DNA of 64,000 nt from an uncultured Candidatus Saccharibacteria bacterium (GCA_964648765.1 CAZYLF010000001.1:79042-143041), one strand, 5' to 3'; positions 34,255-49,396 are shown, counted from the stretch's first letter. Made by a program: numbers and translations. Notes: generated by a model not told the origin, from the letters alone.

Positions 34255-34286
34255 CGATATTCTCCTTTTTTGTTTGGGTAGTAAGA

Positions 34287-34321
34287 CAAAAAAAGGGAGG
34301 GGAGCATAACACACCCCTCCC
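34287..34321 (-). terminator. intrinsic terminator between the coiled-coil gene and the AAA operon
   Basis: Minus strand reads gggaggggtgtgttatgctcccctccc followed by ttttttt. It is immediately followed by the SD/ATG of the next gene. Confidence 0.6.
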
Positions 34322-34351
34322 CGTAAGTTTTACTTCCCGCCAACTAGACCG

Positions 34352-35656
34352 CTAGTTGGTGTTTTGGTAGCTGAAGATCGAGCTCGCGCTCGCCTTCACT
34401 CCATAGTGCTTGCTGAAAGCCTCAAAGGCTTTGGCTTCACGCTCACGCATGAGAGCCGCAGCCTCTGCTTGCCCCGCCGCTGCGTTAGCGATACGAGCCA
34501 AACGTTCGGGATGGTCCTCCACCATTTGCTGGCGGACCTCATCAGAGGCGGCTCCAAATCGAGCCATAGCTTCAGCATTACGCGCATCAATTTCTGTCCC
34601 GATTTTGTCGAGACCTCGCGCCACTTGCTGATCAGCCACACCCTTCATACCCTCTAAGCGGCTGGTATAAGTTACCAATCGCTCTTGAGTGTCAGACTTC
34701 AAAACCATCATCCAGGCTCGCTGGTTGTCGCGCAGTTTGCGCTGTGCCAGTTCGTGGATGGCTAGTTCTGCCGCGAAACGTTCTTTGGACTGATACAGAA
34801 CAAAGACGACATTTCGCTGTCCGCGGAGTTCCTCCATCTCGTTTCGGAGTTTGGTGACCTCTGTTTCCTTGGCCACATAGGCCGCGGTTCCATTGGTGAG
34901 CCCCGCCATCTCCATTTCAGCAAGTTTGACCTTGCTTTCTGTGTCCGAGAGAGCTTTGTCCAACATCTCGAGCTTCTTCGCTGCCTCTTCCTTCACTCCC
35001 AACGCTTCGATCAAGCGGTGAGCCACCTTGACTCGTTCGCTTTCAATCGTGACCGAGCGCGCTTCCATAATCTTGAGCGCTCTGAGCACTTGGGTGGTGA
35101 ATGTCTGAAGTGACTTCTCCATGTTTGACGACATCAGACGCTTGCGATACAAACGCGCTGATTCCGCTTTGGCATGCTGGAGGCCTGACTCGCAGGTTGC
35201 GAGATAGTTTTGGGCAGCAGCAATTCGCTTGCTTTTGAACCAAAAACCGCTCTCGGCCTTTGACAGAGCTTCCTTTGCTTTTTGCAAAGCAAACTCAGCT
35301 CTGGTGACCATCCCCCTTTCTTCGGGTGAGGCTTCAGCCAGGCCCGTCCACTCAAAGCCCATTTTGTTCATGAGTTCGCGGAGTCCGAGAACCGCTTGCG
35401 CTAAGTCCCCCTCCTCCTTCTCCATGTCGGCGCGTAGTGCTTCCACGTTCGCCTTCACAGTCTTGACTCTCATTTCACGAGCGTTGGCCTCCTTCACTTT
35501 CATTGCTTCCTCAAGATCAGTCTCCATTTTGTCGAGACGATCCGTGATGTTCACATCTGGAGTTTTGTGCTCCAGATTAGTAAGCAAGCCGAAGGTGTCA
35601 GTCTGAAGCTCCTTTAGCAGATCCTCTGCTGTCCGCGCCTTTACTGCAGTTTCCAT
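34352..35656 (-). CDS. long alpha-helical coiled-coil protein (TelA/PspA-like architecture, unverified)
   Basis: Track start GTG at 35701; AAGGAG plus ATG at 35656. 434 aa, helical and charged. No TM. Confidence 0.5.
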   Translation of the reverse strand: METAVKARTAEDLLKELQTDTFGLLTNLEHKTPDVNITDRLDKMETDLEEAMKVKEANAREMRVKTVKANVEALRADMEKEEGDLAQAVLGLRELMNKMGFEWTGLAEASPEERGMVTRAEFALQKAKEALSKAESGFWFKSKRIAAAQNYLATCESGLQHAKAESARLYRKRLMSSNMEKSLQTFTTQVLRALKIMEARSVTIESERVKVAHRLIEALGVKEEAAKKLEMLDKALSDTESKVKLAEMEMAGLTNGTAAYVAKETEVTKLRNEMEELRGQRNVVFVLYQSKERFAAELAIHELAQRKLRDNQRAWMMVLKSDTQERLVTYTSRLEGMKGVADQQVARGLDKIGTEIDARNAEAMARFGAASDEVRQQMVEDHPERLARIANAAAGQAEAAALMREREAKAFEAFSKHYGVKASASSIFSYQNTN

Positions 35657-36084
35657 ACAGGTTTTCTCCTTTTCTTCCAAAAATCCTATATTTTGACCCA
35701 CCTACAAGGTGGGCCTATTCGATTGTCAAAAAACAATCACTACTGTCTATATACCTAGCACAATCCGTTTGATTTGTCAACCCATGCTCCATGTTGTATT
35801 TTTATCAATATATCTCGAAAATAATTAAAAAATTTTTGTAAAAATTTTTTCTAATAAATAAATAATAATGACCTGTGGATAACTTACTTGTCCTTTACAA
35901 TGTCTTTTATTAAACTATAGGACAGGTACGATTTGATCTTTGAAAAGGCTGACGAATCCGGAGGCCGGCTATGTCCTTTTAAATCATTTTTGTTTGCCCC
36001 ACTACAATGGTAAACAAAAGGCTAGTCTCCCCTGATATCGGGCCATCCAACCCCAAATAGGGTTGATAAATATAAATAATCCGC

Positions 36085-36141: not shown

Positions 36142-37623
36142 CTATTTTACCCAGTGTTTATCGCGGATTTTCTTGATTTCCTCGCTCTCAATCTCCTCTT
36201 TCTTCTCTTTGCCTTTCTCTCCTAATTCTTTTAATTTAATATCTTCTAGTTTGCTTAACTCTTTCGCTTTGTTAGTTAAATATTCCTGATTGTTTAATTC
36301 TGGGTTATCTAAAGTTTCTTCAAGTAATGCGTGCAGAATGTAACCAATCTTCGGACTTGGATTTAAACCTGTTTCACGTATAACATCCTCCCCTTTTATC
36401 TTAAGCATCGCCACGGAAGTTGGCGCTCGCAAAGCCTCATCAATCATTGATTCATACTTCCTTAAGCGGTAAGGACTCTCTTTTGGTCGGCCCATGCCGA
36501 TACGATCGCAGTTGCGCACCTTCATTAAGTCCCAGATCTCCTCTCTACCCACATTCCTAATTATCCTTCTGACTGCCGAAAGGGTAATTTTATCAATATC
36601 AGTGAAGAACATGTGGTTCCTCACCAATTTTGTTACCAATTCCGTCGTTTCACGTGAAAACTTAAGTCGCTTAAGTATATTTTCAGCCATTTTTGCACCA
36701 ACTACGTCGTGACCGTAGAAGGTATAGTCATTCTTCTCCTTACTAAACTCTCTGGTGCGGGGCTTACCAATGTCATGGAACAAAGCGGCAAGTCTCACGT
36801 GAAACGCAAAGTCCTTGTCGGCCGAATGCTGGGCTACTCGCAAGGTATGCTCCCAAACATCATAGATATGGTCACCGTTTTGCTTCATTCCGATCCCCTC
36901 CTCAAGCTCAGGCATAAACTCCTTTAACGCTCCAGCTTTGTGGAGTAAAATGATCCCGATCATTAGGTTTTTTGACATCAAAAGCTTTGAAAATTCGTCA
37001 TTAACCCGCTCAACTGCAATCTTTTTTAGAAGTGGGGAGGTTTTTATCATTGCCTCAAAAGTCTCACTGTTTAACGTGAAACCGAGCTCCGCCGCCAGCC
37101 TTATACCCCTCATAATTCTAAGTGGATCCTCCTCAAATCGGTCCTCCGCTTTACCCACTGCTCTTAAGGTCATGTCTTTTAAATCTTGAGCGCCGCCGTA
37201 TGGGTCAATTATTTGACCTATAAGAGGCGTAAAGGCCATGGCATTGATCGTAAAGTCCCGACGTCCTAGATCATCCTCAATCTTGTCACTAAACGTCACA
37301 GAGTCAGGATGGCGCTTGTCTGAGTACTTAGCCTCTAATCTAAAAGGCGTGATCTCAATATGCTTTTCAGTTTCATCCCCTGCTTGCTCGTCTACCACAG
37401 TAACGGTGCCGTAGGAATTCTCGTAAAATGTTTTAGGAAAGAGTGAAGCAATCTCTTCTGGCTTTGCGTTGGTGGTGATGTCCCAATCTTTTGGCTTCAC
37501 GTGTAACATTAGGTCGCGCACGCAACCACCAACTAAATAGGCCTTAAAATTGGCTTTTTCAAGGGTGTTTAGGGTCTCAGCGACCCCTTTAGGTATTAAA
37601 AATTGTGTTTTTGACTCCCCCAT
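36142..37623 (-). CDS. cca: CCA-adding tRNA nucleotidyltransferase with HD domain and K/E-rich C-terminal tail
   Basis: GGCVRDLMLHVKPKDWDITT head domain. HD motif LAALFHDIGKP. C-terminal about 55 aa is lysine/glutamate-rich. Confidence 0.85.
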   Translation of the reverse strand: MGESKTQFLIPKGVAETLNTLEKANFKAYLVGGCVRDLMLHVKPKDWDITTNAKPEEIASLFPKTFYENSYGTVTVVDEQAGDETEKHIEITPFRLEAKYSDKRHPDSVTFSDKIEDDLGRRDFTINAMAFTPLIGQIIDPYGGAQDLKDMTLRAVGKAEDRFEEDPLRIMRGIRLAAELGFTLNSETFEAMIKTSPLLKKIAVERVNDEFSKLLMSKNLMIGIILLHKAGALKEFMPELEEGIGMKQNGDHIYDVWEHTLRVAQHSADKDFAFHVRLAALFHDIGKPRTREFSKEKNDYTFYGHDVVGAKMAENILKRLKFSRETTELVTKLVRNHMFFTDIDKITLSAVRRIIRNVGREEIWDLMKVRNCDRIGMGRPKESPYRLRKYESMIDEALRAPTSVAMLKIKGEDVIRETGLNPSPKIGYILHALLEETLDNPELNNQEYLTNKAKELSKLEDIKLKELGEKGKEKKEEIESEEIKKIRDKHWVK

Positions 37624-37703
37624 TTAAATTATTCTAGCCTAGATTTTGCCGTGTTGCTAATTATCTGTTATATTAGCGAGGCACCGGACAGATTCGCTCC
37701 CGT

Positions 37704-37775
37704 GGTGAAATGGATATCACAACGGTCTTCGGAACCGTTATTGGGGGTTCGAATCCCTCCGGGAGCACAGCGACG
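37704..37775 (+). tRNA. tRNA-Arg (anticodon TCG)
   Basis: Manually folded: 7-bp acceptor GCTCCCG/CGGGAGC, D-stem GTGA/TCAC, anticodon stem ACGGT/ACCGT, loop CTTCGGA, T-loop TTCGAAT. Confidence 0.8.
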
Positions 37776-37806
37776 AAGGGATTCGAGAATCCCCGAGGTA
37801 GCGAAT

Positions 37807-37877
37807 GCGGATATCGTTTAGTGGTAGGACACGTCCTTGCCAAGGATGAGGTGGGAGTTCGATTCTCCCTATCCGCA
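37807..37877 (+). tRNA. tRNA-Gly (anticodon GCC)
   Basis: Acceptor GCGGATA/TATCCGC, anticodon loop TTGCCAA, T-loop TTCGATT. Confidence 0.8.
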
Positions 37878-38003
37878 CACAATATGTACCTTGTCTCATT
37901 ATTTCCATCAGACAGTCCGTTATAAACCCTTAAAACTGTGGATAACTCTGGGGACAATGGGGATAAAAGACAGTAAAAGTCGTCTTATATGGCTTAAAAT
38001 CGT

Positions 38004-38387
38004 ATGTCCAAGACAGAAAAGCAGCTGACAGGTGATGTTGGGGAAAACCTAGCAGCTATGTTTCTTATGAAACATAATTTCACCATTATTGGCCGTAATT
38101 ACCGTAAAAAGTGGGGTGAGATTGATGTCATTGCTAAGAAGGGGAATGAGATTAGATTTGTGGAAGTGAAGACTGTGATCCGAGATTTTATTAAAGAAGG
38201 GGATTATGAGGCGTCAGATAATGTGCATCCGTGGAAGCTTAAGAGACTTTCACGAGCGATTCAGACATATTTGTTAGAAAATAAAATTAATGAAGATGAA
38301 ATTGATTGGCAGCTTGATGTAATCTCTGTATATTTAAACGGGCGAGGGGAGACTTTAAAAATTGATTGGTTAGAGGATGTGTTTTAA
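38004..38387 (+). CDS. YraN/UPF0102 family endonuclease-like protein
   Basis: GENLAAMFLMKHNFTIIGRNYRKKWGEIDVIAKKGNEIRFVEVKT matches the UPF0102 pattern. Confidence 0.7.
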   Translation: MSKTEKQLTGDVGENLAAMFLMKHNFTIIGRNYRKKWGEIDVIAKKGNEIRFVEVKTVIRDFIKEGDYEASDNVHPWKLKRLSRAIQTYLLENKINEDEIDWQLDVISVYLNGRGETLKIDWLEDVF

Positions 38388-38468
38388 GCTTGACTTTTGT
38401 GTTGTTTCTGCTTTAATGTGAAAAGCGAATTTTGTTGTTTGAAATGGTAAATTTGAAAGGAGAAAATC

Positions 38469-39425
38469 GTGGCCGAAAGTCGGAAAGAACGCCTCAAAGA
38501 TCTAGTTTTGTTGCCATTCTGGGTGCTCTTATTCTTGCTTATTCTAATTATTTATCCATTTTGGCTTTTGTTTACCAGAGTGGTGAACTGGGTGGGATTA
38601 AGCAATTTACGCACAATGAAAGGTGATGTGCAGACTCCGGTGGTTTATTTTCTGAATCAAAACACCAAACGGATGGTGATTCTGGTAGGGGTGGTGCACC
38701 TCGGCGAGAAGTCGTATTACGCGCAAATCCGGGAACTTCTGGCCTCACTCGACGGCTTCACTGTTCTTTATGAATGGATTAAAGCCTTAAGTGATGAGGA
38801 AAAGTCGAAATTAACTGAGAAGTCCGAAAAAATCGTAAAGGAGTTTGAGAGCTATGGTAAATCCTCACGGATGATTTGTGAGATTCTGGGCCTACAGCCG
38901 CAGAAAGAGGGTTTGCCAATTGAAGCAAAGTGGATCAACACTGACGTAAGAGCCTTTGAATTGATCAATTACTTTGTGAATCACAATCTCAATTTCATGA
39001 AAGATATCGGCAAAATTGAGAAACTTCTAGGTGCGGAATCTGACCAAGTGCTTGATAAGTGGCTACTGAATGGGACCTTCAAGCGAATCATTGTTGTTAT
39101 GGTGTTTGCGGGGTTTTATAGTAAACTCACCAGAAAGCGCCGTTTGAAGCATGATTTTTTGATTAACCAGCGGAATGTTGTTGCAGTTGAAGGTATCCGC
39201 GAGCATTTGGCCAAAGGCAATGTGGTGGCAATATGGGGAGCAGGGCATTTGCCGGGGATTGCCAAAATGCTTAAGCAAGATGGCTTCAGTGTGGTGGGCA
39301 AAGAATGGTACACGGCGTATAAAGCAAAAGATTGCTCGTTTTGGGATGTTTTTGCCGATCGTAGTGTGGTGGCGGTGGAGCGTTTGGCGGCAATTTCTGA
39401 TCAGATAACGAGAATAAAAAAGTAA
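38469..39425 (+). CDS. TraB/GumN family protein
   Basis: GTG start with GGAG SD. N-terminal TM. Motifs LVGVVHLGEKS and GAGHLPGIAKMLKQDGFSV are typical of TraB/GumN. Confidence 0.6.
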   Translation: MAESRKERLKDLVLLPFWVLLFLLILIIYPFWLLFTRVVNWVGLSNLRTMKGDVQTPVVYFLNQNTKRMVILVGVVHLGEKSYYAQIRELLASLDGFTVLYEWIKALSDEEKSKLTEKSEKIVKEFESYGKSSRMICEILGLQPQKEGLPIEAKWINTDVRAFELINYFVNHNLNFMKDIGKIEKLLGAESDQVLDKWLLNGTFKRIIVVMVFAGFYSKLTRKRRLKHDFLINQRNVVAVEGIREHLAKGNVVAIWGAGHLPGIAKMLKQDGFSVVGKEWYTAYKAKDCSFWDVFADRSVVAVERLAAISDQITRIKK

Positions 39426-39449
39426 CACAGTTTGCTTAGGCAAACACCG

Positions 39450-39483
39450 ACCCCCTCCGTAAAAAAGAGGGGGTTTGATTTTA
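39450..39483 (+). terminator. putative intrinsic terminator
   Basis: accccctc-cgtaaaaaa-gagggggt followed by ttgatttt. Confidence 0.45.
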
Positions 39484-39484
39484 A

Positions 39485-39556
39485 TCGGAGCGCCGGGATT
39501 TGAACCCGGAGTCACACGAACCCGAATCGTGCATGTTACCGTTACACTACGCTCCG
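39485..39556 (-). tRNA. tRNA-Pro (anticodon CGG)
   Basis: Minus-strand fold: acceptor CGGAGCG/CGCTCCG, anticodon stem CACGA/TCGTG with loop TTCGGGT, T-loop TTCAAAT. Confidence 0.8.
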
Positions 39557-39677
39557 TAACTCTTGGGTAATTTAACATAATTAAAATTAATTTGTAGTAA
39601 TCCACCTCATTTGCTAGGGTTAAAATTGGAAAATAACAAGCTCGAAGGCTTGTTTGTGGAAATTAAGGAGGACTGTA

Positions 39678-40292
39678 ATGGCGAAGAAAAAGGTTAGATC
39701 GGGAATTCAGAGGCGGGTCAAAGCATCTGCAAGCAGAAATTTGGTTGATGAAATCAACTCTAAGCTTGAAAGTGTAAGACGTCAGCTTGTGATGGAGATT
39801 ATCCCCGACACCTCTGGGAACGAACACACACTCTTAAATTTGGGGGTAATAGGGGATGGGTGTGTTCAGAATATAAATAAAGGGCACTTCTTTTTTCCAT
39901 TTTTAGGAAATAGATATGTAGCCGCGATGTGCTTTTACGGGAAGGCATCTGCGTATGACGTAAGGGCATATAATTTTAACAACCCCTTTTCCCCTAACCC
40001 TCTTAACGATCTTTTGTCTGGCAATTGGTCTATGCGAGTCGGCGCTCAGCACTTTCTTTCTGAAAATTTTGGATCAAATGGGCGTATGTTTTTGGGAAAC
40101 AAGGCTGTTTTGGATTGGTTCTTTGAGAGAGCGCTTTTACACCCCATGGCTAAGCCATATGAGGTTCTTAAGTTTGCAACTAATGTCTTTAGTGCAGAAA
40201 AGATAGTCGTTTCAGGTTATCAACACTACCTGAGAGAAGTAATCCAACAAAGGCTCGATGGTGTGGGCCAAATAGTAGAGCTTTTGGGTTAG
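39678..40292 (+). CDS. hypothetical protein (MAKK family A, paralog 1)
   Basis: AAGGAGG plus ATG. C-terminal GNKAVLDWFFERALLHPMAKPYEVLKFA resembles the 40416 gene. Own terminator. Confidence 0.5.
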   Translation: MAKKKVRSGIQRRVKASASRNLVDEINSKLESVRRQLVMEIIPDTSGNEHTLLNLGVIGDGCVQNINKGHFFFPFLGNRYVAAMCFYGKASAYDVRAYNFNNPFSPNPLNDLLSGNWSMRVGAQHFLSENFGSNGRMFLGNKAVLDWFFERALLHPMAKPYEVLKFATNVFSAEKIVVSGYQHYLREVIQQRLDGVGQIVELLG

Positions 40293-40314
40293 GTTGATTT
40301 CTAGAAGCTGATCT

Positions 40315-40345
40315 GGCCCCGTCGCTTGTGACGGGGCCTTTTTCT
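40315..40345 (+). terminator. intrinsic terminator
   Basis: ggccccgtcgcttgtgacggggcc followed by tttttc. Confidence 0.65.
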
Positions 40346-40415
40346 TGCTAGTTTGAGGTTTGAAAACTCGAGCCAAGGTGGCTTGTTAGGATCTTTGATT
40401 TGAAGGGAGAAAACG

Positions 40416-41180
40416 ATGGCAAAGAAGGTTATGAAGGTGGAGCAGAAGAAAAGCGGCGGTTTGGTTCAGCGTATTAACGAGGTGCTGAAGGATCACAATG
40501 GCCAATTGGCGATGGTGATCAAGCATGAAACTGCTTCGCCCCAGAAAAGTGGCGGGGTAAGAAGAAATTGTGAAGAACCGACCATGGATCTCGATATCGA
40601 GCCGAGGATCAAAACGACGCTTCGTGTTGGGAGGGTATGCAAGGGGTTGCCAGTAGAAAAGCTTAGGGAAGATGGAATTTTTTCCATGCCGGCTTTTGGC
40701 GGTATCGTGGTATGTAAACGTGCTAGCGAAAAAGATCAATTTTCCGTTGAGTTTTTAAAGGGGGAAGGATATTTTTTTATCCCCGCGCAATCGGTAATAC
40801 CGCTTAAGAAGAAGGCCCCTGAGGATGTGTCTGGCGAAGAAATCTTGGATATTCTCAAAAGCCGCGAGCATGGAATGGGTTTGATTGGAGATAAGGCAGT
40901 TATTGAATGGCTCCTTGGTGATTATCTGGATAATCCAGAGTCAAACGCACCTGAGGTACTTGCGCAGGCCATCAAGCACCTTAAGATTGATAAAGAAATT
41001 GGTCTGCCGAATTTTTTTGTGGGACGACACGAAGCGGCAGAAGCAAGGTTTCAACAGGTGGAGGAGGCAATTTACCAGTTGGTGCCGCAAAAGCTTCGCG
41101 AGCTAAGAAGTTCGATCGAGCATGAAAAGAAGCAGTTAGAAACCTTAATCGAATTGTCTACTGAAAGGAGGGGAGGATGA
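40416..41180 (+). CDS. hypothetical protein (MAKK family A, paralog 2)
   Basis: GGAG SD plus ATG. GDKAVIEWLLGDYLDNPESNAPEVLAQA resembles the 39678 gene. Confidence 0.5.
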   Translation: MAKKVMKVEQKKSGGLVQRINEVLKDHNGQLAMVIKHETASPQKSGGVRRNCEEPTMDLDIEPRIKTTLRVGRVCKGLPVEKLREDGIFSMPAFGGIVVCKRASEKDQFSVEFLKGEGYFFIPAQSVIPLKKKAPEDVSGEEILDILKSREHGMGLIGDKAVIEWLLGDYLDNPESNAPEVLAQAIKHLKIDKEIGLPNFFVGRHEAAEARFQQVEEAIYQLVPQKLRELRSSIEHEKKQLETLIELSTERRGG

Positions 41181-41842
41181 ATCTGAAACCGTGGAAAAAG
41201 AAGGAACCGGAGAATCTTTCTCCGGAAGAGGCGAGGTTTAAGAGGGGATTTGATCGGTTGTTTGGCTTTGGTCTGCCAGAGTATGTGCAGAAATCTCTCG
41301 AGCGCCAAAAATCTTTGGTGATCGCCCATGCTTTGAAGTTGCAGACCACCGACTTTTATTCAGTAGTACCGCTTAGTGACGTAAATTTGCCAACGCAGCT
41401 TAGTTGGCTGGCTGGTAAAAAGGCACCGAGTTTACCTCATTATCGTCGTTGGCCAAAATGTCGATTCGGCAGTTTGCCAGACTTGCCGTGGTTTATTTTT
41501 GGTGTGAAGGTCACTAATTGTTTGGATCACAGCGTGGAGGACGTGGCGCGACACTTAGTAGGCGAAGGGGAGGAGATCCTGACTTTGCCAGAGGTGATTG
41601 CCTTTTTGCTTGAGGTGAAAAAGACGCAAGCCGAAGCCCCAAGTGAGCCTCACCCCATAAAATTGGCGCTCTCCACATTTCATCTTGTTGGTAATATGGA
41701 TGGCAACAATTGGCCACTCATCACTTGTGATAGTGCGGGAGTGGCGCTGGTGTCGAGACAAGATTCTGCGCTTATCTCAACAACCAGACCCAACAATTAT
41801 CTCCTTTCAACTCAAGTCAGAAAGTGTTTTGTTTTGGAATAG
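41177..41842 (+). CDS. hypothetical protein
   Basis: ATGA overlap with the upstream gene. 221 aa. Followed by a terminator. Confidence 0.5.
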   Translation: MNLKPWKKKEPENLSPEEARFKRGFDRLFGFGLPEYVQKSLERQKSLVIAHALKLQTTDFYSVVPLSDVNLPTQLSWLAGKKAPSLPHYRRWPKCRFGSLPDLPWFIFGVKVTNCLDHSVEDVARHLVGEGEEILTLPEVIAFLLEVKKTQAEAPSEPHPIKLALSTFHLVGNMDGNNWPLITCDSAGVALVSRQDSALISTTRPNNYLLSTQVRKCFVLE

Positions 41843-41849
41843 TTCACTC

Positions 41850-41884
41850 GCCCCGCGCCGTAAATGGTGCGGGGCTTTTTTTTA
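41850..41884 (+). terminator. intrinsic terminator
   Basis: gccccgcgccgtaaatggtgcggggc followed by ttttttttt. Confidence 0.7.
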
Positions 41885-41906
41885 TGCTAGATTAACTGGG
41901 CAATAA

Positions 41907-41977
41907 CGGAGCGTAGTATAGCGGTAGTATGCATGCTTTGGGAGCATGTGGCCCGGGTTCGATTCCCGGCGCTCCGA
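41907..41977 (+). tRNA. tRNA-Pro (anticodon TGG)
   Basis: Acceptor CGGAGCG/CGCTCCG, anticodon stem CATGC/GCATG with loop TTTGGGA, T-loop TTCGATT. Confidence 0.8.
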
Positions 41978-42074
41978 AGATTAGGTTTTCAAATTTGCGT
42001 GAGTTTATTTTTTGGCGTACCATATATCCCAACGTGTTCTTTGGAGGTTGGAGTCAGTTTTTTATGGAGGATTT

Positions 42075-42374
42075 ATGAAAACGGCCCCATGTTTGGCTAG
42101 TGATCTCTCGGTGTATCCAGAGTCGTCGTTGCGCGAGATTGGCCACTGGTTGGACCAATCTATTGGAGCGATGGAAAGTTTAAGTAAATTAAGGAGCACC
42201 ATCCCGTCTTTTTTTGGTTCTGATCGGCGCCTGACGAGCGCTTCCAACGCTTTTGTTTCTAGTGTTGGCGCGTTACTCCTAACTCTTCACGAAATGAAGG
42301 ACCTGCGCTCCAAAATTACTGATGAAATCAGGAAAAAGCGCGAAGTGCGTGAGCCTTCTCTCATTTCTGCATGA
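42075..42374 (+). CDS. small hypothetical protein
   Basis: GGAGG plus ATG at 42075 inside the track ORF. 99 aa. Terminator downstream. Confidence 0.4.
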   Translation: MKTAPCLASDLSVYPESSLREIGHWLDQSIGAMESLSKLRSTIPSFFGSDRRLTSASNAFVSSVGALLLTLHEMKDLRSKITDEIRKKREVREPSLISA

Positions 42375-42398
42375 AGAAAAAGCTGGAAAAAACAACTA

Positions 42399-42439
42399 GC
42401 GCCAGTCCCGCACCGTTGCGGGACTGGCGCACTTTTTTG
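42399..42439 (+). terminator. intrinsic terminator
   Basis: gcgccagtcccgcaccgttgcgggactggcgc followed by acttttttg. Confidence 0.7.
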
Positions 42440-42510
42440 TCTGTGCTAAAATCAAATCAGTCTGATCTTTGTGAGACAGGCTATTTTATACCAAATAAGG
42501 AGGATGATCG

Positions 42511-42876
42511 ATGGGTCGATCCCGGCGTCGGCGTGGATATGGTGGCAATAACAATGGTCAATCTAATGGGGGAAAGGCAAATAAACCCCAAGCAGCGCCT
42601 ATCCAAACAAGCAACGAACAATCAAAGCAGCCCCCGTCAATTTATTGTGGTATTTGCGGAAAAGCCCACGATAACGGCTTTCCAATTTGGGAGTTGCCAT
42701 GTGGTCGTCGATTTAACATCAGGGTAGAAATTCCAGCCTGCGACTTTTGCTTAGACTCAAAGCATTTCAAAGACTTTCTTGGTCTTCGTGATGCAAATGG
42801 TCCTAAGACTACGTCGGATTACCTCACTCTCCTTGCTCGTTACATAGAATTGTATCAAAAAAGACGTACATCCTAA
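42511..42876 (+). CDS. small Cys-rich (zinc-ribbon-like) protein with Arg/Gly-rich N-terminus
   Basis: AAGGAGG plus ATG. CGICGK ... CGRRF ... CDFC. Preferred over the overlapping track ORF 42371..42727. Confidence 0.45.
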   Translation: MGRSRRRRGYGGNNNGQSNGGKANKPQAAPIQTSNEQSKQPPSIYCGICGKAHDNGFPIWELPCGRRFNIRVEIPACDFCLDSKHFKDFLGLRDANGPKTTSDYLTLLARYIELYQKRRTS

Positions 42877-42898
42877 GTTTCAAAAAAAGTAATTAAAC

Positions 42899-42940
42899 TT
42901 GCCCTGACCATCATACGGTTGGGGCAACTTTTTATTTTAA
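42899..42940 (+). terminator. putative intrinsic terminator (imperfect stem)
   Basis: ttgccc ... gggcaa followed by ctttttatttt. Confidence 0.4.
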
Positions 42941-42944
42941 ATTT

Positions 42945-43015
42945 TCGGGCTGCCGAGAATTGAACTCGGTCTACATGCACCCCATGCATGCGTACTGCCG
43001 GTATACTACAGCCCG
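42945..43015 (-). tRNA. tRNA-Pro (anticodon GGG)
   Basis: Minus-strand fold: acceptor CGGGCTG/CAGCCCG, anticodon stem CATGC/GCATG with loop ATGGGGT, T-loop TTCAATT. Confidence 0.8.
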
Positions 43016-43127
43016 TAGCAACAACCATGTATCATACTTCTGATAACGAGGTTTGCAACTTTTTGTGCTTTAGAGTAGTTTTCATTATTAGTGAGGACAA
43101 ATAAGCTTTTTGAAAGGAGGCAAGCGG

Positions 43128-43640
43128 ATGAGCGGAGCACAGGTTGAAAGCCGTTTCAAAGTATTTGAAGAAATTGAAAACGCTTTGGCTGGCAAAATCG
43201 GTGAGCGAGTGCTGGTGGTGAAGAGGGGAATCCATCATCAAAAACGCGCAAGCGATAACACGGTGGTGCACTCGTGGCATGTTGAGGAATGGTTTATAGG
43301 CAGATTGAATGCGAACATTTTACTTACCGAGCCGGACTGTGGAATTATCTTTGTGCCGGTGGAGAAGCACGTGCGGGCAAAATTTCCGTACGGCAATCAG
43401 AAGGTAGTGTGTGATGTTACCACCTCACCTATTCGTCTTAATGTGTTTGATGACGATGGAGCGATTGAAACGGTGATTCCGCCGCGAGAAGCTTTTGATC
43501 TCAGTGTGCGTAATGCGCCGCCACGCTCTGTGCAAGTGGTGATCTCAGACGATCCGATCAGAAGTTTTGTGGCAAACAAGGGTAAAATGGCTGCACACAT
43601 GTATTTTTGTCTCAATGCACAACTTCATCGTAGTGGGTAA
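43128..43640 (+). CDS. hypothetical protein
   Basis: AAAGGAGG plus ATG at 43128. 170 aa. Own terminator. Confidence 0.5.
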   Translation: MSGAQVESRFKVFEEIENALAGKIGERVLVVKRGIHHQKRASDNTVVHSWHVEEWFIGRLNANILLTEPDCGIIFVPVEKHVRAKFPYGNQKVVCDVTTSPIRLNVFDDDGAIETVIPPREAFDLSVRNAPPRSVQVVISDDPIRSFVANKGKMAAHMYFCLNAQLHRSG

Positions 43641-43654
43641 GATATCAGTTTTTC

Positions 43655-43683
43655 TGCCGGGCGCTTCGCGCCCGGCTTTTTTC
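43655..43683 (+). terminator. intrinsic terminator
   Basis: gccgggcgcttcgcgcccggc followed by ttttttc. Confidence 0.7.
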
Positions 43684-43700
43684 TTGCTACAATTATATGA

Positions 43701-44123
43701 ATGGTATTTTTTCTCCAAATCTTGATTGCGTTGGTGGCGCTTTGTGGCTTATCAATCGCTCTTTATATTTCTCATAAAAAAGTTCATGGTGGCAAAATGG
43801 TTTGCATGCTTAATTCAGATTGCGAAGTGGTGGTCACAAGTAATTATTCTAAGTTTTTAGGAATCCCCGTTGAGCGTTTAGGTATTGCTTATTACTCTAT
43901 TGTGGCGGCAAGTTATTTGGTTTTTGCTTTCGCACCTCAACTCTCACATAACTTTTATTCAGTAATTTTGCTTTGGGCCACGGTGCTCGCTTTTTTATTT
44001 TCGATTTATCTTACCTACATTCAGATGGCTAAGATTAAACAGTGGTGCACTTGGTGTCTCACCTCAGCAATCATTTGCACCGTAATCTTCCTTGCAGTTC
44101 TTAAATTAATCAGTATATTTTAG
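43701..44123 (+). CDS. vitamin K epoxide reductase (VKOR) family membrane protein
   Basis: Four hydrophobic helices. Loop cysteines (CMLNSDC). CTWC redox motif in the last helix region. VKOR-like arrangement. Confidence 0.65.
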   Translation: MVFFLQILIALVALCGLSIALYISHKKVHGGKMVCMLNSDCEVVVTSNYSKFLGIPVERLGIAYYSIVAASYLVFAFAPQLSHNFYSVILLWATVLAFLFSIYLTYIQMAKIKQWCTWCLTSAIICTVIFLAVLKLISIF

Positions 44124-44161
44124 CTACAGCGGGCTTGCCCGCCGTAGCGTTAGCAAAAGCG

Positions 44162-44235
44162 GGATTAGTTTATCGGTAAAATAACAGTTTTCCAAACTGT
44201 GGTGACCGGTTCGACTCCGGTATCCCGCACCAAAA
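44162..44235 (+). tRNA. tRNA-Gly (anticodon TCC), CCA encoded
   Basis: Acceptor GCGGGAT/ATCCCGC, anticodon stem ACAGT/ACTGT with loop TTTCCAA, T-loop TTCGACT, 3' ACCA. Confidence 0.8.
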
Positions 44236-44311
44236 ATAAGGATTGCTCAAAATGTAACTTGTGGTAGTTTGTTGTCTGGATTAGAACCTTGTTAATTTAA
44301 GGAGAAAGGCA

Positions 44312-45241
44312 ATGATAACGCTGTCGAATCGTTACACTTTTGATTATCTGATCTCAAGTGGCGCTTGGGGCGATGTGGGTAGGGGTTGGTGGTATGACCA
44401 ACCGTGGTTTGCATTAGGACTTATGAAGCGCAGGCCGTTTGCTGTTGTCACCAAATCAGTTAGCCGTTTCCCCATGAAAGGGAATCGTTCTTTCAAAGAC
44501 TGGTTTGGTGTTGGTTGTGTGCGTTTTATTCCTGATGGTGTGGTTAATGCCGTTGGTCTCACCAATGATGGCTTTCATGTTTGGTTTGATAAGGTGAAGC
44601 GATATGTGAGACCTAATGACTGGCGACTAATTCCATCTTTGTACGGCTCTACTGAGGATTTGGTTTATATGATTGATCGACTCAATCAGTCCGGACTTCC
44701 GTTTGTGGCTCTCCAAATCAATATGTCTTGCCCCAACACTGGCCCAGGTCTTTTGGGTACCGAGGATGCCTTAATCAGGCTCCGTGTACTTAAAGGAACA
44801 AGTTCCTACCCAATTATCGCCAAACTTTCAGTCGCACAAGATTGTGTAGCGATTGTGAAGGGGGGTAAACCGGAAGCGGTGGAACTTAACAGTGTGCCGT
44901 GGAAAATAATGTTCCCTAATGACCGAAGTCCGCTGGAACATATCCCCAACAGTAATGGTGGGGGCGTATCGGGCAAGGTGGCACAAAAATTTACCTGGCC
45001 ACTCATCGAGAGATTGGCGAAGGAGTGTCCGGAAGTGCCGGTGATCGGCGGGAACATCTGGGAGTATTTAGACATCGCTCGCGTGCGATTGATCGGCGCT
45101 AAAGCTGTGAGTTTTGGTTCGGTGCACATTCCTAACCCACGTAAGATTTCAACGTGGTTAAACCCCACAAAACCCACGCGGTGGGTTTTGCAAGATATCC
45201 AAGACATGAATGAATGGGAGGAAGATCTAGATGAAGAGTAG
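44312..45241 (+). CDS. pyrD: dihydroorotate dehydrogenase-like (class 1) flavoprotein
   Basis: LQINMSCPNTGP active-site Cys motif. C-terminal GGVSGK ... VPVIGGNIWEYLDIARVRLIGAKAVSFGS. GGAG SD plus ATG. Confidence 0.7.
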   Translation: MITLSNRYTFDYLISSGAWGDVGRGWWYDQPWFALGLMKRRPFAVVTKSVSRFPMKGNRSFKDWFGVGCVRFIPDGVVNAVGLTNDGFHVWFDKVKRYVRPNDWRLIPSLYGSTEDLVYMIDRLNQSGLPFVALQINMSCPNTGPGLLGTEDALIRLRVLKGTSSYPIIAKLSVAQDCVAIVKGGKPEAVELNSVPWKIMFPNDRSPLEHIPNSNGGGVSGKVAQKFTWPLIERLAKECPEVPVIGGNIWEYLDIARVRLIGAKAVSFGSVHIPNPRKISTWLNPTKPTRWVLQDIQDMNEWEEDLDEE

Positions 45242-46304
45242 AGGTAGTGAAGTGTCGCAGGTGAAGGTGCAAGCCATTGCCGACACGCATTTGCATTTGC
45301 GTGAAGGTGCTAAGTTGGTAAAGGATTTGATCGCTGCATCCGCTCAAGGTGGCGCTGACTTTGCTATTTTTATGCCCAACACACAAGCTGGGTTGAAAAA
45401 TGGAGTGGAAGCAGAGAGGTATTATAAGGTTGCTCGGAATGCTGATCGAGAAGGTAAACTTGATCTTCGAGCAACTTTTGTGATTACACCAGACACAACC
45501 TTTGAAACATTAAAGAATTGTGTTCAGTGTGGAGTACGTGATGCCAAAGTTTATCCGAGAGGAAGAACCACCAACTCCAGTTATGGGGTGAGTGATTATG
45601 GCGCACTTCTTCCGATCATCAAACGTTGTGGAGAAATGGGGATACGCGTGCACTTCCATCCGGAACATCCGATTGGCCTCGTGCCTAATCGCGATGCGGA
45701 GTATCTTTTTATCCCGATTATGGACATGTTTCTTCGGGAGACTAAAGCTACTCTCATTTGGGAGCATGGCACTGATGGTCGGTGTGTACCATTTTGGGAA
45801 GAGTGGGGTGAGAAAGAAAAAGGTCGTTTTGCCGTGACTCTCACGGCGCACCATTTGCTCACCACTGAAGATGTTGTGTTTGGTGATGTGCGTGGTGTGT
45901 GCAAGCCGCCAATAAAAACAGAAGCAGACCGTTTCCGTCTCATCGATTTGGTGGCAGCTGGTTACTCTTGGGTAATGGCAGGGTCTGATAGTGCGCCGCA
46001 CCCAGTGCATAAGAAAAATGTGCAGCAAGGTCGATGTGCGTGTGGGGCCTTCACTGCTCCCTTTCTCCATTCACTTTATGCTCAGGCGCTTGGTGATATT
46101 CTCTTTGATACTGAAACTGGTATCAATCTCTACAACGCGTTTGTAAGTGAGAACGCGCGCAAGTTCTATGATTGGCCGGCGAGTTCTCGGGAGATCGTCC
46201 TGATAAACGAGCCGTTTACGATCCCCAATTCTTACTTGCTGGGTGGTGAAGAGTACGAACTCTTCATGGCTGGCGAGATGCTTAGGTGGAGTATTGCTAA
46301 GTAG
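45231..46304 (+). CDS. pyrC: dihydroorotase, type II (E. coli-like)
   Basis: ADTHLHLREG, DAKVYPRGRTTNSSYGV, GSDSAPHPVHKK, FMAGEMLRWS. All align with E. coli PyrC blocks. Confidence 0.85.
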   Translation: MKSRGSEVSQVKVQAIADTHLHLREGAKLVKDLIAASAQGGADFAIFMPNTQAGLKNGVEAERYYKVARNADREGKLDLRATFVITPDTTFETLKNCVQCGVRDAKVYPRGRTTNSSYGVSDYGALLPIIKRCGEMGIRVHFHPEHPIGLVPNRDAEYLFIPIMDMFLRETKATLIWEHGTDGRCVPFWEEWGEKEKGRFAVTLTAHHLLTTEDVVFGDVRGVCKPPIKTEADRFRLIDLVAAGYSWVMAGSDSAPHPVHKKNVQQGRCACGAFTAPFLHSLYAQALGDILFDTETGINLYNAFVSENARKFYDWPASSREIVLINEPFTIPNSYLLGGEEYELFMAGEMLRWSIAK

Positions 46305-46318
46305 TAAAATTTATTAAG

Positions 46319-46357
46319 CGTGGTAGCTTGTTAACGCAAGCTACCACGTTTTCTTTA
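46319..46357 (+). terminator. intrinsic terminator after pyrC
   Basis: cgtggtagcttgttaacgcaagctaccacg followed by ttttcttt. Confidence 0.7.
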
Positions 46358-46453
46358 TTAATTTGTTTTGCTTGCAAGTTTGGCGTTTACGTATTAAATT
46401 TAATGGCAGAGGTTCTGTGATTAGTACAGTTTTTTTTGGTAAAGGAGCAACGC

Positions 46454-46600
46454 ATGATTTGCCTTCAGAGTGTCTTCGATCTTCCGTGGCTTAATGAGAT
46501 CAATTTTGATCTCGAGATTGACTGGCAGTATGTCTTCAAGGTCATCTTGATTTTGAAAGTCGTCTTCTTGCTCGCGCTCTTTGTCGTCACATTTTTGTGA
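46454..46600 (+). CDS. unannotated small ORF (48 aa) with hydrophobic C-terminus
   Basis: AAAGGAG 7 nt upstream of the ATG. Encodes MICLQSVFDLPWLNEINFDLEIDWQYVFKVILILKVVFLLALFVVTFL. Followed by its own terminator. Below the ORF-track cutoff. Confidence 0.35.
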   Translation: MICLQSVFDLPWLNEINFDLEIDWQYVFKVILILKVVFLLALFVVTFL

Positions 46601-46616
46601 CGAGCGCCGTTCCTAA

Positions 46617-46650
46617 ACCGTGGAGTTTTCACACTCCACGGTTTTTGTTT
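46617..46650 (+). terminator. intrinsic terminator
   Basis: accgtggagttttcacactccacggt followed by ttttgttt. Confidence 0.65.
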
Positions 46651-46753
46651 ACGCTATTTACTTTTTTAATATAATGTGCTAGTAATTTAAGTAGAAATTG
46701 TCGCCTCATTTGAGGCTTTGAAAATCAAAACACTTAATGAAAGGCGGTGGCGT

Positions 46754-47503
46754 ATGATATCAATAGACACGATTCAAAATCTGAGTTGGGGGCGTGGGGA
46801 TTTCAGGGCGAAGTTGGAGTTATTTAGGCGGGCCAGAAAAGAGTTCCGAGACAAAGAATTTGAAATCAAGATGTTTCCAAAGGGCAATACAGAACATCGG
46901 CTCTCGTGGGAATATTCAGCATTGTCGAGTACTTACTATAGCATCTTCACTACGGCCATTGCTCAGCTTTTTTCAATTAAGTCTGATGGGTGGTTGGCGC
47001 CACTTCGCCTTATCCCTTGGCTCCTCACCTGGGGTTGGTTGGGCTTTTGGTGTTGGTGGCGGATGTTACCACTTTCCAATAAAGCCTTAAGGTTAGCTGG
47101 AGGGTACGGTTGCATGGACGCTGATATGTGTGATGTTCGTCAAAGCATTCTTCGGGCTCGTTTGAAATGGGAGAAGGCGCTCAATTGTTGCGGTTATGGT
47201 TTACGGGATGAACAAATTTCCCCTCATACTAAAGCGCTACTTTTGGTGGCGCGGGCAGAAGGGTATTGGAGGTTTAATAAGACCCGAGATGTCGAACATG
47301 ACATTGAGTCGGCACTGAGGCTTGCAGTTGAACTTGAAGAGAGTGAACCCAATCAGATGTCGCGTGTGTATCGTCGGTGTGCTGTATTAGTTGAAAAACT
47401 TAACTTTGATAAGTATGACTGGCAAGCACTTTTGGCTAAGGCTAAAGAGCTAGCCGAGAGAGCGGGCGCTGGTGATCAGACTCTCAAGTGCGCAGTAGTT
47501 TGA
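46754..47503 (+). CDS. membrane hypothetical protein (Trp/Cys-rich)
   Basis: ATG at 46754 inside the track ORF. TM segments (PWLLTWGWLGFWCWW). Own terminator. Confidence 0.45.
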   Translation: MISIDTIQNLSWGRGDFRAKLELFRRARKEFRDKEFEIKMFPKGNTEHRLSWEYSALSSTYYSIFTTAIAQLFSIKSDGWLAPLRLIPWLLTWGWLGFWCWWRMLPLSNKALRLAGGYGCMDADMCDVRQSILRARLKWEKALNCCGYGLRDEQISPHTKALLLVARAEGYWRFNKTRDVEHDIESALRLAVELEESEPNQMSRVYRRCAVLVEKLNFDKYDWQALLAKAKELAERAGAGDQTLKCAVV

Positions 47504-47523
47504 TTGATAATGGATTCTTTACT

Positions 47524-47558
47524 CCGCGGAGGCTTTTACGCTTCCGCGGTTTTTTTGT
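47524..47558 (+). terminator. intrinsic terminator
   Basis: ccgcggaggcttttacgcttccgcgg followed by tttttttg. Confidence 0.7.
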
Positions 47559-47661
47559 TTCACTAACTTGTTTTATTGGGCTATTTAAGATAGTTTGAAA
47601 GTTGGTTAGGTATTTTGAAAAAAGAACATTTTCTCCCGAAGGGAGAGAGGGGTGGTAAAAG

Positions 47662-48435
47662 ATGGAAAAAGGAAGTAAGCAGTTATTGGATGAATTAGAT
47701 AGTTTAGAAAATCTGCACACAAACCTGGCAATTCTGAAGAGCCAGGTAGAAATTGGTGCCAGTAAGTGCCGGGAAAAATCTTCAGAAATTCATAGACTAA
47801 TCTCTTCTGGTCACACCACAGGTGATCCGTTTCGGGATTTTGTGATTTATTGGGCTGAACGTTATAAATGGGATCCGATCAGGTCAAATTTATCAAGTCT
47901 CCAGCGATTGATCGCACACAAGAAGGGGCAATTGGTGTTGGCCATTTTCCGTCGTGAGATTGAGAAGCCTCGCGCTTGTCTTGATTTGGGTTTAGATGGC
48001 TGTTTACCAGCCAGTTATGATCAAGCCGTCGACATGTGCTTGGGGCGGTTAACAGACAGTTGTTTAATTATTGATGTAAAACAGTATTTGATTCAACTGC
48101 CAACGGGGAGTTATGTGAGATGGTCGGAAAAGGGTATTTTGGAGGCTGCAAAACCCGGGCCAATTGGGAGTTCGCCATCTGGTAAACACTTTTTGGGTTT
48201 GTTTGAGCCGGTGGGAAGATGGGAGGGAAGAGGGGAGGATCTACCCGCCGTTTGTGATCTTGAGCATGCGCCGACAGACACCAGAGACCACATTACTTCC
48301 AGTTGCTTCTTTCATTATCTTGGTGAAAATAAGCGACGAGCGGAAGTGTGGGTTGGTGATAAAGAGGTTGAAGCTTTTTTCCCAGGTTGTATGAAGGAGA
48401 GAATTTTTTCCAAAATGCTTCACCTGCTTGGTTAA
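47662..48435 (+). CDS. hypothetical protein, family B paralog 1
   Basis: Shares LQRLIAHKKGQLVLAIFRRE, FGRLT and VGDxxxxAFFPG blocks with the 48597 gene. Conserved 5' leader. Confidence 0.55.
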   Translation: MEKGSKQLLDELDSLENLHTNLAILKSQVEIGASKCREKSSEIHRLISSGHTTGDPFRDFVIYWAERYKWDPIRSNLSSLQRLIAHKKGQLVLAIFRREIEKPRACLDLGLDGCLPASYDQAVDMCLGRLTDSCLIIDVKQYLIQLPTGSYVRWSEKGILEAAKPGPIGSSPSGKHFLGLFEPVGRWEGRGEDLPAVCDLEHAPTDTRDHITSSCFFHYLGENKRRAEVWVGDKEVEAFFPGCMKERIFSKMLHLLG

Positions 48436-49379: not shown

Positions 49380-49396
49380 GGTCTGAGTTTCACACT

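Follow-up and report, generated by a model that had tools for sequence, protein, structure and literature searches.

How can six transfer RNA (tRNA) genes keep their order in a very small genome while the genes between them differ from one lineage to the next? The question is raised by a 64,000-nt stretch of DNA (the window; GCA_964648765.1, CAZYLF010000001.1:79042-143041) from a Patescibacteria (Paceibacterota) bacterium. An earlier note had described positions 37704 to 44240 as one tRNA-Arg, two tRNA-Gly, and all three tRNA-Pro genes interleaved with singly terminated orphan genes, and had suggested repeated insertion events or a variable region, as tRNA genes are classic integration targets. 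This reading is partly supported. Comparison with related genomes shows the tRNAs to be core and the intervening genes to be variable, since the order of the scaffold recurs while the spacing and the genes in the gaps differ. In relatives, tRNA genes of the array have demonstrably served as targets of integration, but the cassettes of the window carry no integration scars. Probably, the region is a clade-wide ancestral scaffold with variable single-gene units that are turned over by three processes.

ARAGORN and Rfam (RF00005, 51.7-66.1 bits) call all six tRNAs alike, each where the earlier note had folded it, and neither finds a further tRNA in the window. Only Gly-TCC encodes its CCA end. 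If 45 tRNAs are assumed in a genome of 0.55-1 Mb (a size assumed from the source contig of at least 553 kb), the probability of finding at least six within 6.5 kb is 7e-7 to 2e-5. For comparison, one genome per GTDB species was scanned with the CCA enzyme. This gave 67 loci (CCA identity 53-87%), nearly all from Patescibacteria of the Paceibacterota/Parcubacteria group. Closer relatives, L074 (CCA 94.9% aa), L073, and L197, were found through homologues of o41177, the gene that starts at 41177. The tRNAs and the window proteins were mapped on all loci, and all open reading frames (ORFs) were clustered. Presence is counted among 33 informative relatives, each with at least 3 kb of flank. The members of the scaffold, with the recombinase gene to their left, are as follows (tRNAs by ARAGORN and Rfam).

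22221-23102, plus strand: Xer-type tyrosine recombinase, cluster C1 (Pfam Phage_integrase, 3.8e-46), left anchor of the plastic zone.
36142-37623, minus strand: cca, CCA-adding enzyme, conserved scaffold (Pfam PolyA_pol, RNA-binding domain, and HD).
37696-37768, plus strand: tRNA-Arg(TCG), scaffold; adjoins cca in 33/33 relatives.
37807-37878, plus strand: tRNA-Gly(GCC), scaffold; in 31/33 relatives.
38004-38387, plus strand: UPF0102 (YraN-like) gene, conserved scaffold (PF02021, 1.4e-18); a 36-member cluster in relatives.
39485-39556, minus strand: tRNA-Pro(CGG), left boundary of a hyper-divergent cassette; in 6/33 relatives.
41907-41977, plus strand: tRNA-Pro(TGG), scaffold, right boundary of the hyper-divergent cassette; in 28/33 relatives.
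42945-43015, minus strand: tRNA-Pro(GGG), scaffold in a subset of relatives (10/33).
43701-44123, plus strand: VKOR-family gene, 140 aa, conserved scaffold (PF07884, E 2.7e-25), as the earlier note had recognized.
44159-44232, plus strand: tRNA-Gly(TCC), scaffold; in 17/33 relatives.

The cca product is 55-95% identical (aa) in relatives. Although tRNA-Arg and tRNA-Gly(GCC) do stand beside cca, they do not follow it in tandem, as had been proposed; cca is on the opposite strand and diverges from them. On the cca side, the backbone of the relatives consists of an NYN protein, S15, a Xer-type recombinase, (exonuclease III), and cca; on the tRNA side, it consists of tRNA-Arg, tRNA-Gly(GCC), UPF0102, tRNA-Pro genes, (VKOR), and tRNA-Gly(TCC), mostly in the same order. 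Beyond tRNA-Gly(TCC), alanine racemase, HU, RNase Y, and ClpP are kept. Homologues of VKOR (46-76%) have the same position in L006, L007, L010, L013, and L029, and lie on the other side of cca in L032. The complete proline set, which had been taken as an oddity of this DNA, is a clade trait: all three tRNA-Pro genes are also found in at least L006, L013, L034, and L044. Among the 33 informative relatives, cca and tRNA-Gly(TCC) may be as close as 411 nt or as far apart as 7,214 nt. In L013, six tRNAs, UPF0102, and VKOR are squeezed into about 1.7 kb, and in different lineages the same intervals are filled by non-homologous ORFs.

The variable zone reaches far beyond the stretch described at first, which is only its centre. 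With anchors of the backbone at 17.5-23.1 kb and 50.2-55.4 kb, the plastic zone spans about 27 kb (23.1-50.2 kb), and conservation there is limited to about 3 kb: cca, the tRNAs, UPF0102, and VKOR. Within the window, 12.5-23.1 kb and 50.2-55.4 kb are conserved and 23.1-50.2 kb is not, as far as 64 kb here can be compared with at most 21 kb per relative. The same flanks with differing gene content across genomes are what is expected of a core-flanked hotspot. The recombinase C1 is found in 52 cca-anchored loci, usually adjoining cca or a few genes away. It scores 253.7 bits on the NCBIfam XerA-type model, above the cut-off of 220, and does not reach the cut-offs of the XerC/XerD equivalogs. Clusters C5, C2, C3, and C8 of the neighbourhood were read from their sequences as exonuclease III, NYN, S15, and PNPase. 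Cluster C11, a candidate recombinase at one point, was rejected as a TrmB-type helix-turn-helix regulator. The orientation of the tRNAs flips in place among relatives: Arg in 10/33, Gly(GCC) in 5/31, Pro(TGG) in 3/28, Pro(GGG) in 3/10, and Gly(TCC) in 2/17.

The gaps of the scaffold in the window hold the following units.

38469-39425, plus strand: TraB/PrgY-like gene (PF01963, 4.2e-09, partial), a variable cassette at the 3' end of tRNA-Pro(CGG).
39678-40338, plus strand: o39678 (204 aa) with its own terminator (40315-40338); none in L074.
40416-41180, plus strand: o40416 (254 aa), fast-evolving; its stop overlaps the o41177 start by 4 nt.
41177-41875, plus strand: o41177 (221 aa) and terminator (41850-41875); small lineage-restricted family under purifying selection.
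42075-42430, plus strand: o42075 (99 aa) and bidirectional terminator (42399-42430); a 64% homologue at the same position in L074.
42511-42927, plus strand: o42511 (121 aa; basic N-terminus, Cys-rich) and terminator (42899-42927); a 56% homologue at the same position in L006.
43016-43684, plus strand: o43128 (170 aa) and terminator (43656-43676) in a 670-nt indel; 24 nt in L006.
44233-46656, plus strand: PyrD-like and PyrC-like genes with two terminators in a 2.4-kb indel that begins right past tRNA-Gly(TCC).
46718-50183, plus strand: four single-gene units, o46718, o47662, o48597, and o49532, up to the conserved alr at 50223.

The gene starts at 39678, 40416, 41177, 42075, 42511, 43128, and 43701 given in the earlier note equal the calls on independent assemblies (204, 254, 221, 99, 121, 170, and 140 aa). 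Its list of genes between the tRNAs was incomplete, as UPF0102 and the TraB/PrgY-like gene, both with Pfam matches, also lie there. The five terminators it had marked (40315, 41850, 42399, 42899, and 43655 or 43656) are confirmed by G+C-rich stems of 9-14 bp followed by T runs. Those of the last four units lie at 47524, 48456, 49396, and 50160. Of the window's 24 strong terminators, 18 fall in 23.1-27.6 kb, where seven are on the minus strand, and 40.3-50.2 kb; the conserved blocks have almost none. Between terminators and the next gene starts at 39.6-43.7 kb, there are five plus-strand TGCTAnnnT boxes (extended -10-like). This motif is not enriched window-wide (29 found, 28 expected), and its position is only suggestive of a promoter box. 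An extended -10-like sequence, TGCTACAAT, stops 8 nt ahead of the VKOR start codon (window 43685-43703), where no Shine-Dalgarno sequence is visible, which suggests that the VKOR mRNA may be leaderless.

How the gaps change is best seen in the closest relatives. Between the window and L006, blocks of 68-80% nucleotide identity are collinear: cca and tRNA-Arg; tRNA-Gly(GCC) and UPF0102; o41177; o42511 and tRNA-Pro(GGG); VKOR; tRNA-Gly(TCC); o46718; and alr. Between these blocks, the 670 nt that hold o43128 correspond to 24 nt in L006, and the 2.4 kb of PyrD-like and PyrC-like genes directly past the 3' end of tRNA-Gly(TCC) correspond to 11 nt. In place of the TraB-like gene, of o39678 and o40416, and of o42075, L006 has other ORFs; the position of the TraB-like gene holds an unrelated 417-aa gene in L006 and L073, and that of o42075 an unrelated 112-aa ORF in L006. 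L006 in turn has a cassette not found in the window, a toxin gene with a tiny upstream ORF between VKOR and tRNA-Gly(TCC) (3971-4303; reverse-complement 6998-7330). Its motif makes the toxin a candidate of the MazF/PemK-like type. In L074, o39678 is missing, as is the TraB-like gene, and UPF0102 ends 12 nt from tRNA-Pro(CGG). tRNA-Pro(TGG) is 96-99% identical yet inverted in L006, L073, and L074 relative to the window (96% for L006). The differences from the closest relatives end at tRNAs or terminators, and take the form of clean insertions, deletions, and replacements.

The divergence of the sequences is discordant along the array. Between the window and L074, cca is 94.9% identical (aa) with a proportion of synonymous differences (pS) of 0.44, and UPF0102 89.8% with a pS of 0.34. 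Past tRNA-Pro(CGG), o41177 is only 31%, o40416 25%, and o42075 64% identical, with pS saturated at 0.75-0.82 (0.82 for o42075). Synonymous divergence jumps from modest to saturated at this tRNA. The same o41177 is 77% identical to its homologue in the more distant L006, with a dN/dS of 0.09. L073 and L006 show a similar picture. Their nucleotide identity is 93% as far as the anticodon region of tRNA-Pro(CGG) and returns to 86% at the terminator and tRNA-Pro(TGG), but no alignment is possible over the intervening o40416/o41177 cassette, whose proteins share 26-36% (aa). For both pairs, the identity breakpoint is at or just past tRNA-Pro(CGG). Discordant divergence together with breakpoints at tRNAs points to allele replacement by recombination in the conserved flanks.

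The genes of the gaps are without known relatives for the most part. No Pfam family is found for six small genes of the stretch, and the small orphan genes have no match in PHROGs, NCBIfam, or PADLOC and no sequence relatives in PDB (for o42511, Pfam, PHROGs, NCBIfam, and PADLOC give no family). The only PHROGs match is a marginal one of the TraB-like gene. AlphaFold models are poor, with a predicted local distance difference test (pLDDT) score of 46 for o41177 and 49 for o42511. In a word-indexed search of 5.8 billion clusters, o40416 matches only itself. Pairwise comparison nevertheless gives positional homologues in L073 (34%), L006 (26%), and L074 (C-terminal, 30%). The o41177 family has 6 representatives at E<=0.001 among 1.84 billion proteins; homologues are at the same position in L074 and L073, in L197, the order of the o40416 and o41177 families is reversed, and there are two o40416-like copies. 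Several of the orphans have diverged from local paralogues. o39678 is a tandem paralogue of o40416 (hhalign probability 95%, E 3.7e-8), and o43128 is a distant member of the o47662/o48597/o49532 family at 47.6-50.1 kb (hhalign 91.6%, E 8e-7), whose members match only themselves in the large database. Variable and core genes do not differ in composition (GC 0.459 vs 0.449, p 0.43; GC at third codon positions (GC3), p 0.61). Because of these positional homologues, the local paralogy, the composition equal to that of core genes, and the lack of PHROG relatives, the small genes are real, resident, fast-evolving, and lineage-specific, not recent foreign imports. The earlier label of orphans is too strong for several of them, as local paralogy or vertical inheritance under purifying selection shows. 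The PyrD-like and PyrC-like genes are diverged relatives of dihydroorotate dehydrogenase and dihydroorotase. The PyrC-like protein matches NCBIfam pyrC_dimer (2.3e-56) under the cut-off, and the PyrD matches are weak, below curated cut-offs. Pyrimidine-synthesis genes would be an unusual acquisition for a bacterium of the candidate phyla radiation (CPR).

In relatives, the tRNAs of the array are entered by two kinds of very small inserts. The first kind follows a tRNA. In 18 cases, the last 17-21 nt of a tRNA are copied exactly and in direct orientation downstream of that same tRNA; no such copy lies upstream of it. These copies span from the interior of the T-loop to the discriminator base and are mostly 78-310 nt from the tRNA. 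A regenerated target with a displaced fragment is the geometry of islands in tRNA genes (PMC4383910), and crossover in the T-loop is known for attB of mycobacteriophage Ms6 (PMC1762012). The inserts are homologous to one another, about 100-150 nt long, protein-less, and structured, and lie immediately 3' of tRNA genes. Each of these mini-elements consists of a 9-bp hairpin with the invariant apex AACUGCUU (AA-CUGC-UU) and seven pairs with compensatory changes, a segment that is antisense to the T-arm of the host tRNA and pairs with the terminal repeat, a second hairpin, and the terminal copy of the host tRNA's last 17-21 nt. A covariance model finds 41 copies in relatives, of which 31 start at most 40 nt from a tRNA on the same strand. 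Some copies are in tandem (L033, L043, L103, L109, and L131). Others, as in L019 and L041, come after a terminator, which argues for a function on the level of DNA. Examples are as follows.

L074 1993-2111: mini-element copy.
L031 3429-3562: mini-element copy.
L043 9614-9746: mini-element copy.
L032 716-837 and 1104-1207: mini-element copies.
L028 2449-2597 and 2781-2926: mini-element copies.
L033 209-536: mini-element copies.

At gathering thresholds, Rfam has no family for the mini-element. In metagenomes, its core has at least 120 matching stretches. Of 125 core matches, 87 follow a tRNA (31 anticodon species, median insert 144 nt), and 43 of these 87 inserts end in an exact copy (at least 14 nt) of that tRNA's 3' end. 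No match of the core is found in viral contigs, and a phage origin was rejected on this ground. No cargo-bearing copies that might encode an integrase are found. In L185 (about 1100-1340), the core lies past the tRNA-like 3' end of an apparent transfer-messenger RNA (tmRNA) gene downstream of smpB. If these candidate smpB and tmRNA genes are read correctly from sequence, the target range would extend to tmRNA. ORFs can also be part of such inserts. In L061 (7415 to about 4500, minus strand), tRNA-Gly(GCC) is followed by three consecutive units that encode a 106-aa membrane protein, a 117-aa protein, and a 213-aa protein. The units share a similar leader of about 230 nt with repeated GGTTCTAAC motifs, which are not enriched in the window, and close with an antisense T-arm segment. 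Behind it, the first two units repeat the tRNA 3' end, and in the third this repeat is decayed.

In the second kind, a complete tRNA with inverted repeats of 13-35 nt is inserted in the anticodon loop of the resident tRNA of the same type. The inserted tRNA is a tRNA-Pro, and the 5' and 3' halves of the older copy persist on both sides. A GGAAGTCC...GGACTTCC hairpin is present in three loci. We found neither kind of insert described in the searchable literature. The loci are as follows.

L006 7734-7919 (reverse-complement 3378-3567): tRNA inserted in tRNA.
L030 8346-8603: tRNA inserted in tRNA.
L036 4492-4614 plus downstream: tRNA inserted in tRNA.
L028 around 1492-1682: tRNA inserted in tRNA.

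The covariance model has no match in the window at E<=1. What is left there is a relic in the Arg-Gly spacer, recognized by alignment to the copies in L074 and L006.

37769-37806, plus strand: mini-element relic, 38 nt.

The intact mini-element at this site has 102 nt in L074 and about 140 nt in L006. The relic keeps the left end CAGCGAC and the right end CGAGAATCCCCGAGGTAGC, has lost about 80-105 nt of the interior, and holds only a decayed remnant of 8-10 nt of the tRNA-end repeat.

These observations can be joined in the reading we favour as the probable one. The scaffold of cca, the six tRNAs, UPF0102, and VKOR would stay put, and its gaps would take lineage-specific single-gene units, each with its own terminator and likely its own promoter, so that gain or loss of a unit may leave the neighbouring tRNAs undisturbed. 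By the first process, homologous recombination anchored on scaffold sequences would swap divergent alleles and make clean indels. Here the discordant divergence and the breakpoints at tRNAs are observed, and recombination, with DNA uptake as the source, is what we infer from them. The second process would be local duplication followed by fast divergence of lineage-specific families; two cases are shown, the pair o39678/o40416 and o43128 with its relatives at 47.6-50.1 kb. The third would be site-specific insertion into the T-loop or anticodon loop of a tRNA. It is shown in relatives; the 38-nt relic, all that is left in the window, allows it at most a past contribution here. Several points weigh against this reading. 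Its recombination mechanism is deduced from patterns rather than observed. It rests on three or four close relatives, two of them short contigs, in which gain and loss are not always separable. The tRNAs may mark the plastic zone without causing it, as the neighbourhood varies to either side of cca. The window cassettes are flanked by no att scars. Allele replacement could be mimicked by deep divergence in situ under diversifying selection, against which the saturated synonymous sites argue.

The repeated insertion put forward in the earlier note, taken here as stacked integrase-mediated entries at tRNA 3' ends as in classic tRNA-targeted genomic islands, draws on the same relatives: the 18 downstream copies and no upstream one on the same tRNAs, the breakpoints in anticodon loops, and the ORF-bearing cassettes of L061. 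In the window itself, the relic follows tRNA-Arg, and the changes of the TraB-like gene, o42075, and the pyrD/pyrC-like genes are directly 3' of a tRNA. These genes also vary in presence among related genomes, as Islander-type islands do. We still consider it unlikely that such islands explain the window. No gene at 23147-50146 has a recombinase domain, the sole one nearby being the conserved Xer-type gene, and the plastic zone has no integrase. The att-like direct repeats that should flank the cassettes were searched for by a repeat search, BLAST of all tRNAs against all loci, and an exact end-copy search, and no copy of any tRNA 3' end of at least 14 nt is found in the window. There is no match to the element model, no deviant composition in GC or GC3, and no PHROGs match beyond the marginal one of the TraB-like gene. 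The o39678-o41177 block and o43128 sit on the 5' sides of their tRNAs, and o39678 and o43128 are paralogous to resident genes. Repeated insertion at tRNAs is not supported for the window. A broader form of insertion, in which Patescibacteria carry an integron-like, tRNA-anchored cassette system that lies behind tRNA scaffolds with cassettes like those of the window, is quite unlikely. Protein-less sites of about 100-150 nt, made of the AACUGCUU-apex hairpin and a palindrome of antisense T-arm and tRNA 3'-end copy, would enter the T-loop of practically any tRNA or tmRNA gene by recombination in trans. Such sites would sometimes carry ORFs, as in the three-cassette array of L061, and stacked inserts would build the scaffold. 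The enzyme could be a host tyrosine recombinase, for example the candidate Xer-type gene beside the array in 52 loci. A sister element would swap tRNA genes by complete-tRNA insertion with inverted repeats in the anticodon loop, and such replacement could explain the in-place flips of orientation.

An ordinary conserved core, vertically inherited without exchange, in which homology searches simply miss small fast-evolving genes, would account for the collinearity of o41177, o42511, VKOR, and o46718 with L006, for the dN/dS of 0.08-0.09 in o41177 and VKOR, and for saturated dS in o42511 and o46718. o40416 seemed an ORFan and yet has positional homologues of 26-34%, composition equals that of core genes, and CPR genomes are generally rich in hypothetical genes. 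This explanation is largely refuted, and we hold it to be improbable, because of clean presence and absence of 0.67, 1.1, and 2.4 kb against 24, 12, and 11 nt and because, in one and the same pair of genomes, pS rises over no more than 1.5 kb from 0.34-0.44 to saturated values. The relationships of the cassettes also contradict those of the flanks (window/L074/L006 and L006/L073), and compact relatives are without the genes altogether. The last possibility is an artefact of assembly or binning, in which tRNA repeats caused chimeric joins between strains or species. Assemblies do break here: L002 and L003 end 143 nt past the cca start, exactly where tRNA-Arg has its 3' end (window about 37766), and L005 starts inside the TraB-like gene (window about 38733), which hints at strain-level heterogeneity at these places. 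It is nonetheless highly improbable that the array is chimeric. The same arrangement is present in assemblies of three runs (SRR14271331, SRR14271332, and SRR14271335), in full on an 84-kb contig of another run, and on the 553-kb NCBI contig, and the scaffold order recurs in dozens of independent metagenome-assembled genomes from different studies.

The array of tRNAs and single-gene units shares features with several known systems. As in tRNA/tmRNA islands and prophages (PMC4383910; PMC1762012), there is variable DNA beside tRNA genes, and in the relatives a regenerated tRNA and a displaced 3' fragment mark the ends of inserts whose breakpoints in the T-loop or anticodon loop are known sublocations. 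Unlike such islands, the window has no integrase, displaced fragment, or compositional shift, the inserts of the relatives are mostly 100-150 nt and encode no protein, and six tRNAs are interleaved with single genes instead of one tRNA with one large island. Integrons consist of an intI integrase, an attI site, and attC cassettes. Like integron arrays, the window has small single-gene units in series near a tyrosine-recombinase gene. In L061, every ORF unit ends in an imperfect palindrome of antisense T-arm and tRNA-end repeat, and the common ORF-less units, little more than the site, resemble attC-only cassettes. In contrast to promoterless, co-oriented cassettes ending in attC, units in the window have their own terminators and promoter-like boxes, probably their own promoters, and tRNAs and genes are on both strands; no attC/attI consensus is present, and the repeat search found no shared palindromic end site in the window. 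No IntI-type integrase is found, and the nearby Xer-type gene scores 131.5 bits on TIGR02249, far under the cut-off of 265. Cis-mobilizable elements (CIMEs) are non-autonomous elements flanked by att sites, and elements like miniature inverted-repeat transposable elements (MITEs) are mobilized in trans. The mini-elements of the relatives are likewise short and protein-less with att-like repeats, sometimes in tandem, which matches accretion at att sites. They differ in the covarying hairpin and in sequences matched to the host tRNA across 31 anticodon species; neither a matching autonomous element nor a cognate integrase nor a viral-contig match is found.

Gene-flux hotspots flanked by core genes are a concept of comparative genomics. 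The locus shares with them the same core bounds, different accessory genes, tRNAs near, and recombination in the flanks as the proposed mechanism; what differs is that the flanks are 70-nt tRNA genes 0.1-2.5 kb apart, which makes a row of micro-hotspots along a very small CPR genome. Bacterial tRNA arrays and operons (PMC8421152) also show local enrichment of tRNAs, and the compact L013 and L070 resemble a small array, whereas the six tRNAs here are on both strands within 6.5 kb, apparently individually transcribed, with terminated protein genes between them. In Caldiarchaeum, an archaeal tRNA gene is disrupted by a mobile element (PMC3293823). As in L006, L030, L036, and L028, a tRNA is split by an insert and a fragment displaced, but the archaeal element has 1.8 kb and a recombinase, and the inserts here are less than 200 nt with inverted repeats and a complete replacement tRNA. 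We rate the locus as a variant of the known theme of tRNA-linked hotspots, and the small tRNA-targeted elements as the newest by-product.

Other features of the window are a block to the left of the array, a repeated palindrome, and a switch of GC skew.

23147-35701, minus strand: lineage-specific 13-kb block from the recombinase to cca; in the overlapping locus L001, its genes are singletons among the 67 related loci.

The block encodes DUF6915, a cytidylate-kinase-like protein, an AAA ATPase (31149-33215), DUF6638 (29893-31149), and a 449-aa coiled-coil protein. PADLOC gives no match in it beyond a marginal IetA match of the AAA protein. Four copies of the palindrome TTCACGTGAA (at most one mismatch) lie in the 1.5-kb cca coding region (36649, 36794, 37071, and 37496); window-wide there are seven matches against 2.6 expected, and the motif is also repeated upstream of UPF0102 in L061. 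The cumulative GC skew has its minimum and changes sign at the divergent cca/tRNA junction (about 37700). Two perfect and one near-perfect DnaA-box 9-mers are near this junction (35874, 37937, and 37958), and such 9-mers are enriched window-wide (31 vs 13.9 expected), with a triple cluster at 12.15-12.29 kb (12153-12289). A replication origin at the skew switch was not adopted, as the skew tracks gene strand and reverses twice more, at 52 and 59 kb. In the related genome of L015, 9490-9544 matches the type III hammerhead ribozyme (RF00008) with 49.6 bits, slightly over the gathering score; this match has nothing to do with the tRNA elements.

In the tiny genomes of Patescibacteria (CPR), few mobile elements can be recognized, and little is understood of how genes are gained and exchanged. 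The locus provides a concrete architecture of gene flux in a tiny genome: a fixed string of tRNAs whose gaps hold rapidly replaced, self-contained units, with allele swaps bounded by tRNAs. It also brings to light two very small kinds of tRNA-targeted inserts that are common in related genomes and metagenomes and have no entry in Rfam. If these inserts are mobilized in trans, they would give CPR bacteria a way of inserting genes at specific sites that can be tested, and would be a source of the tRNA-gene fragments that confuse annotation.

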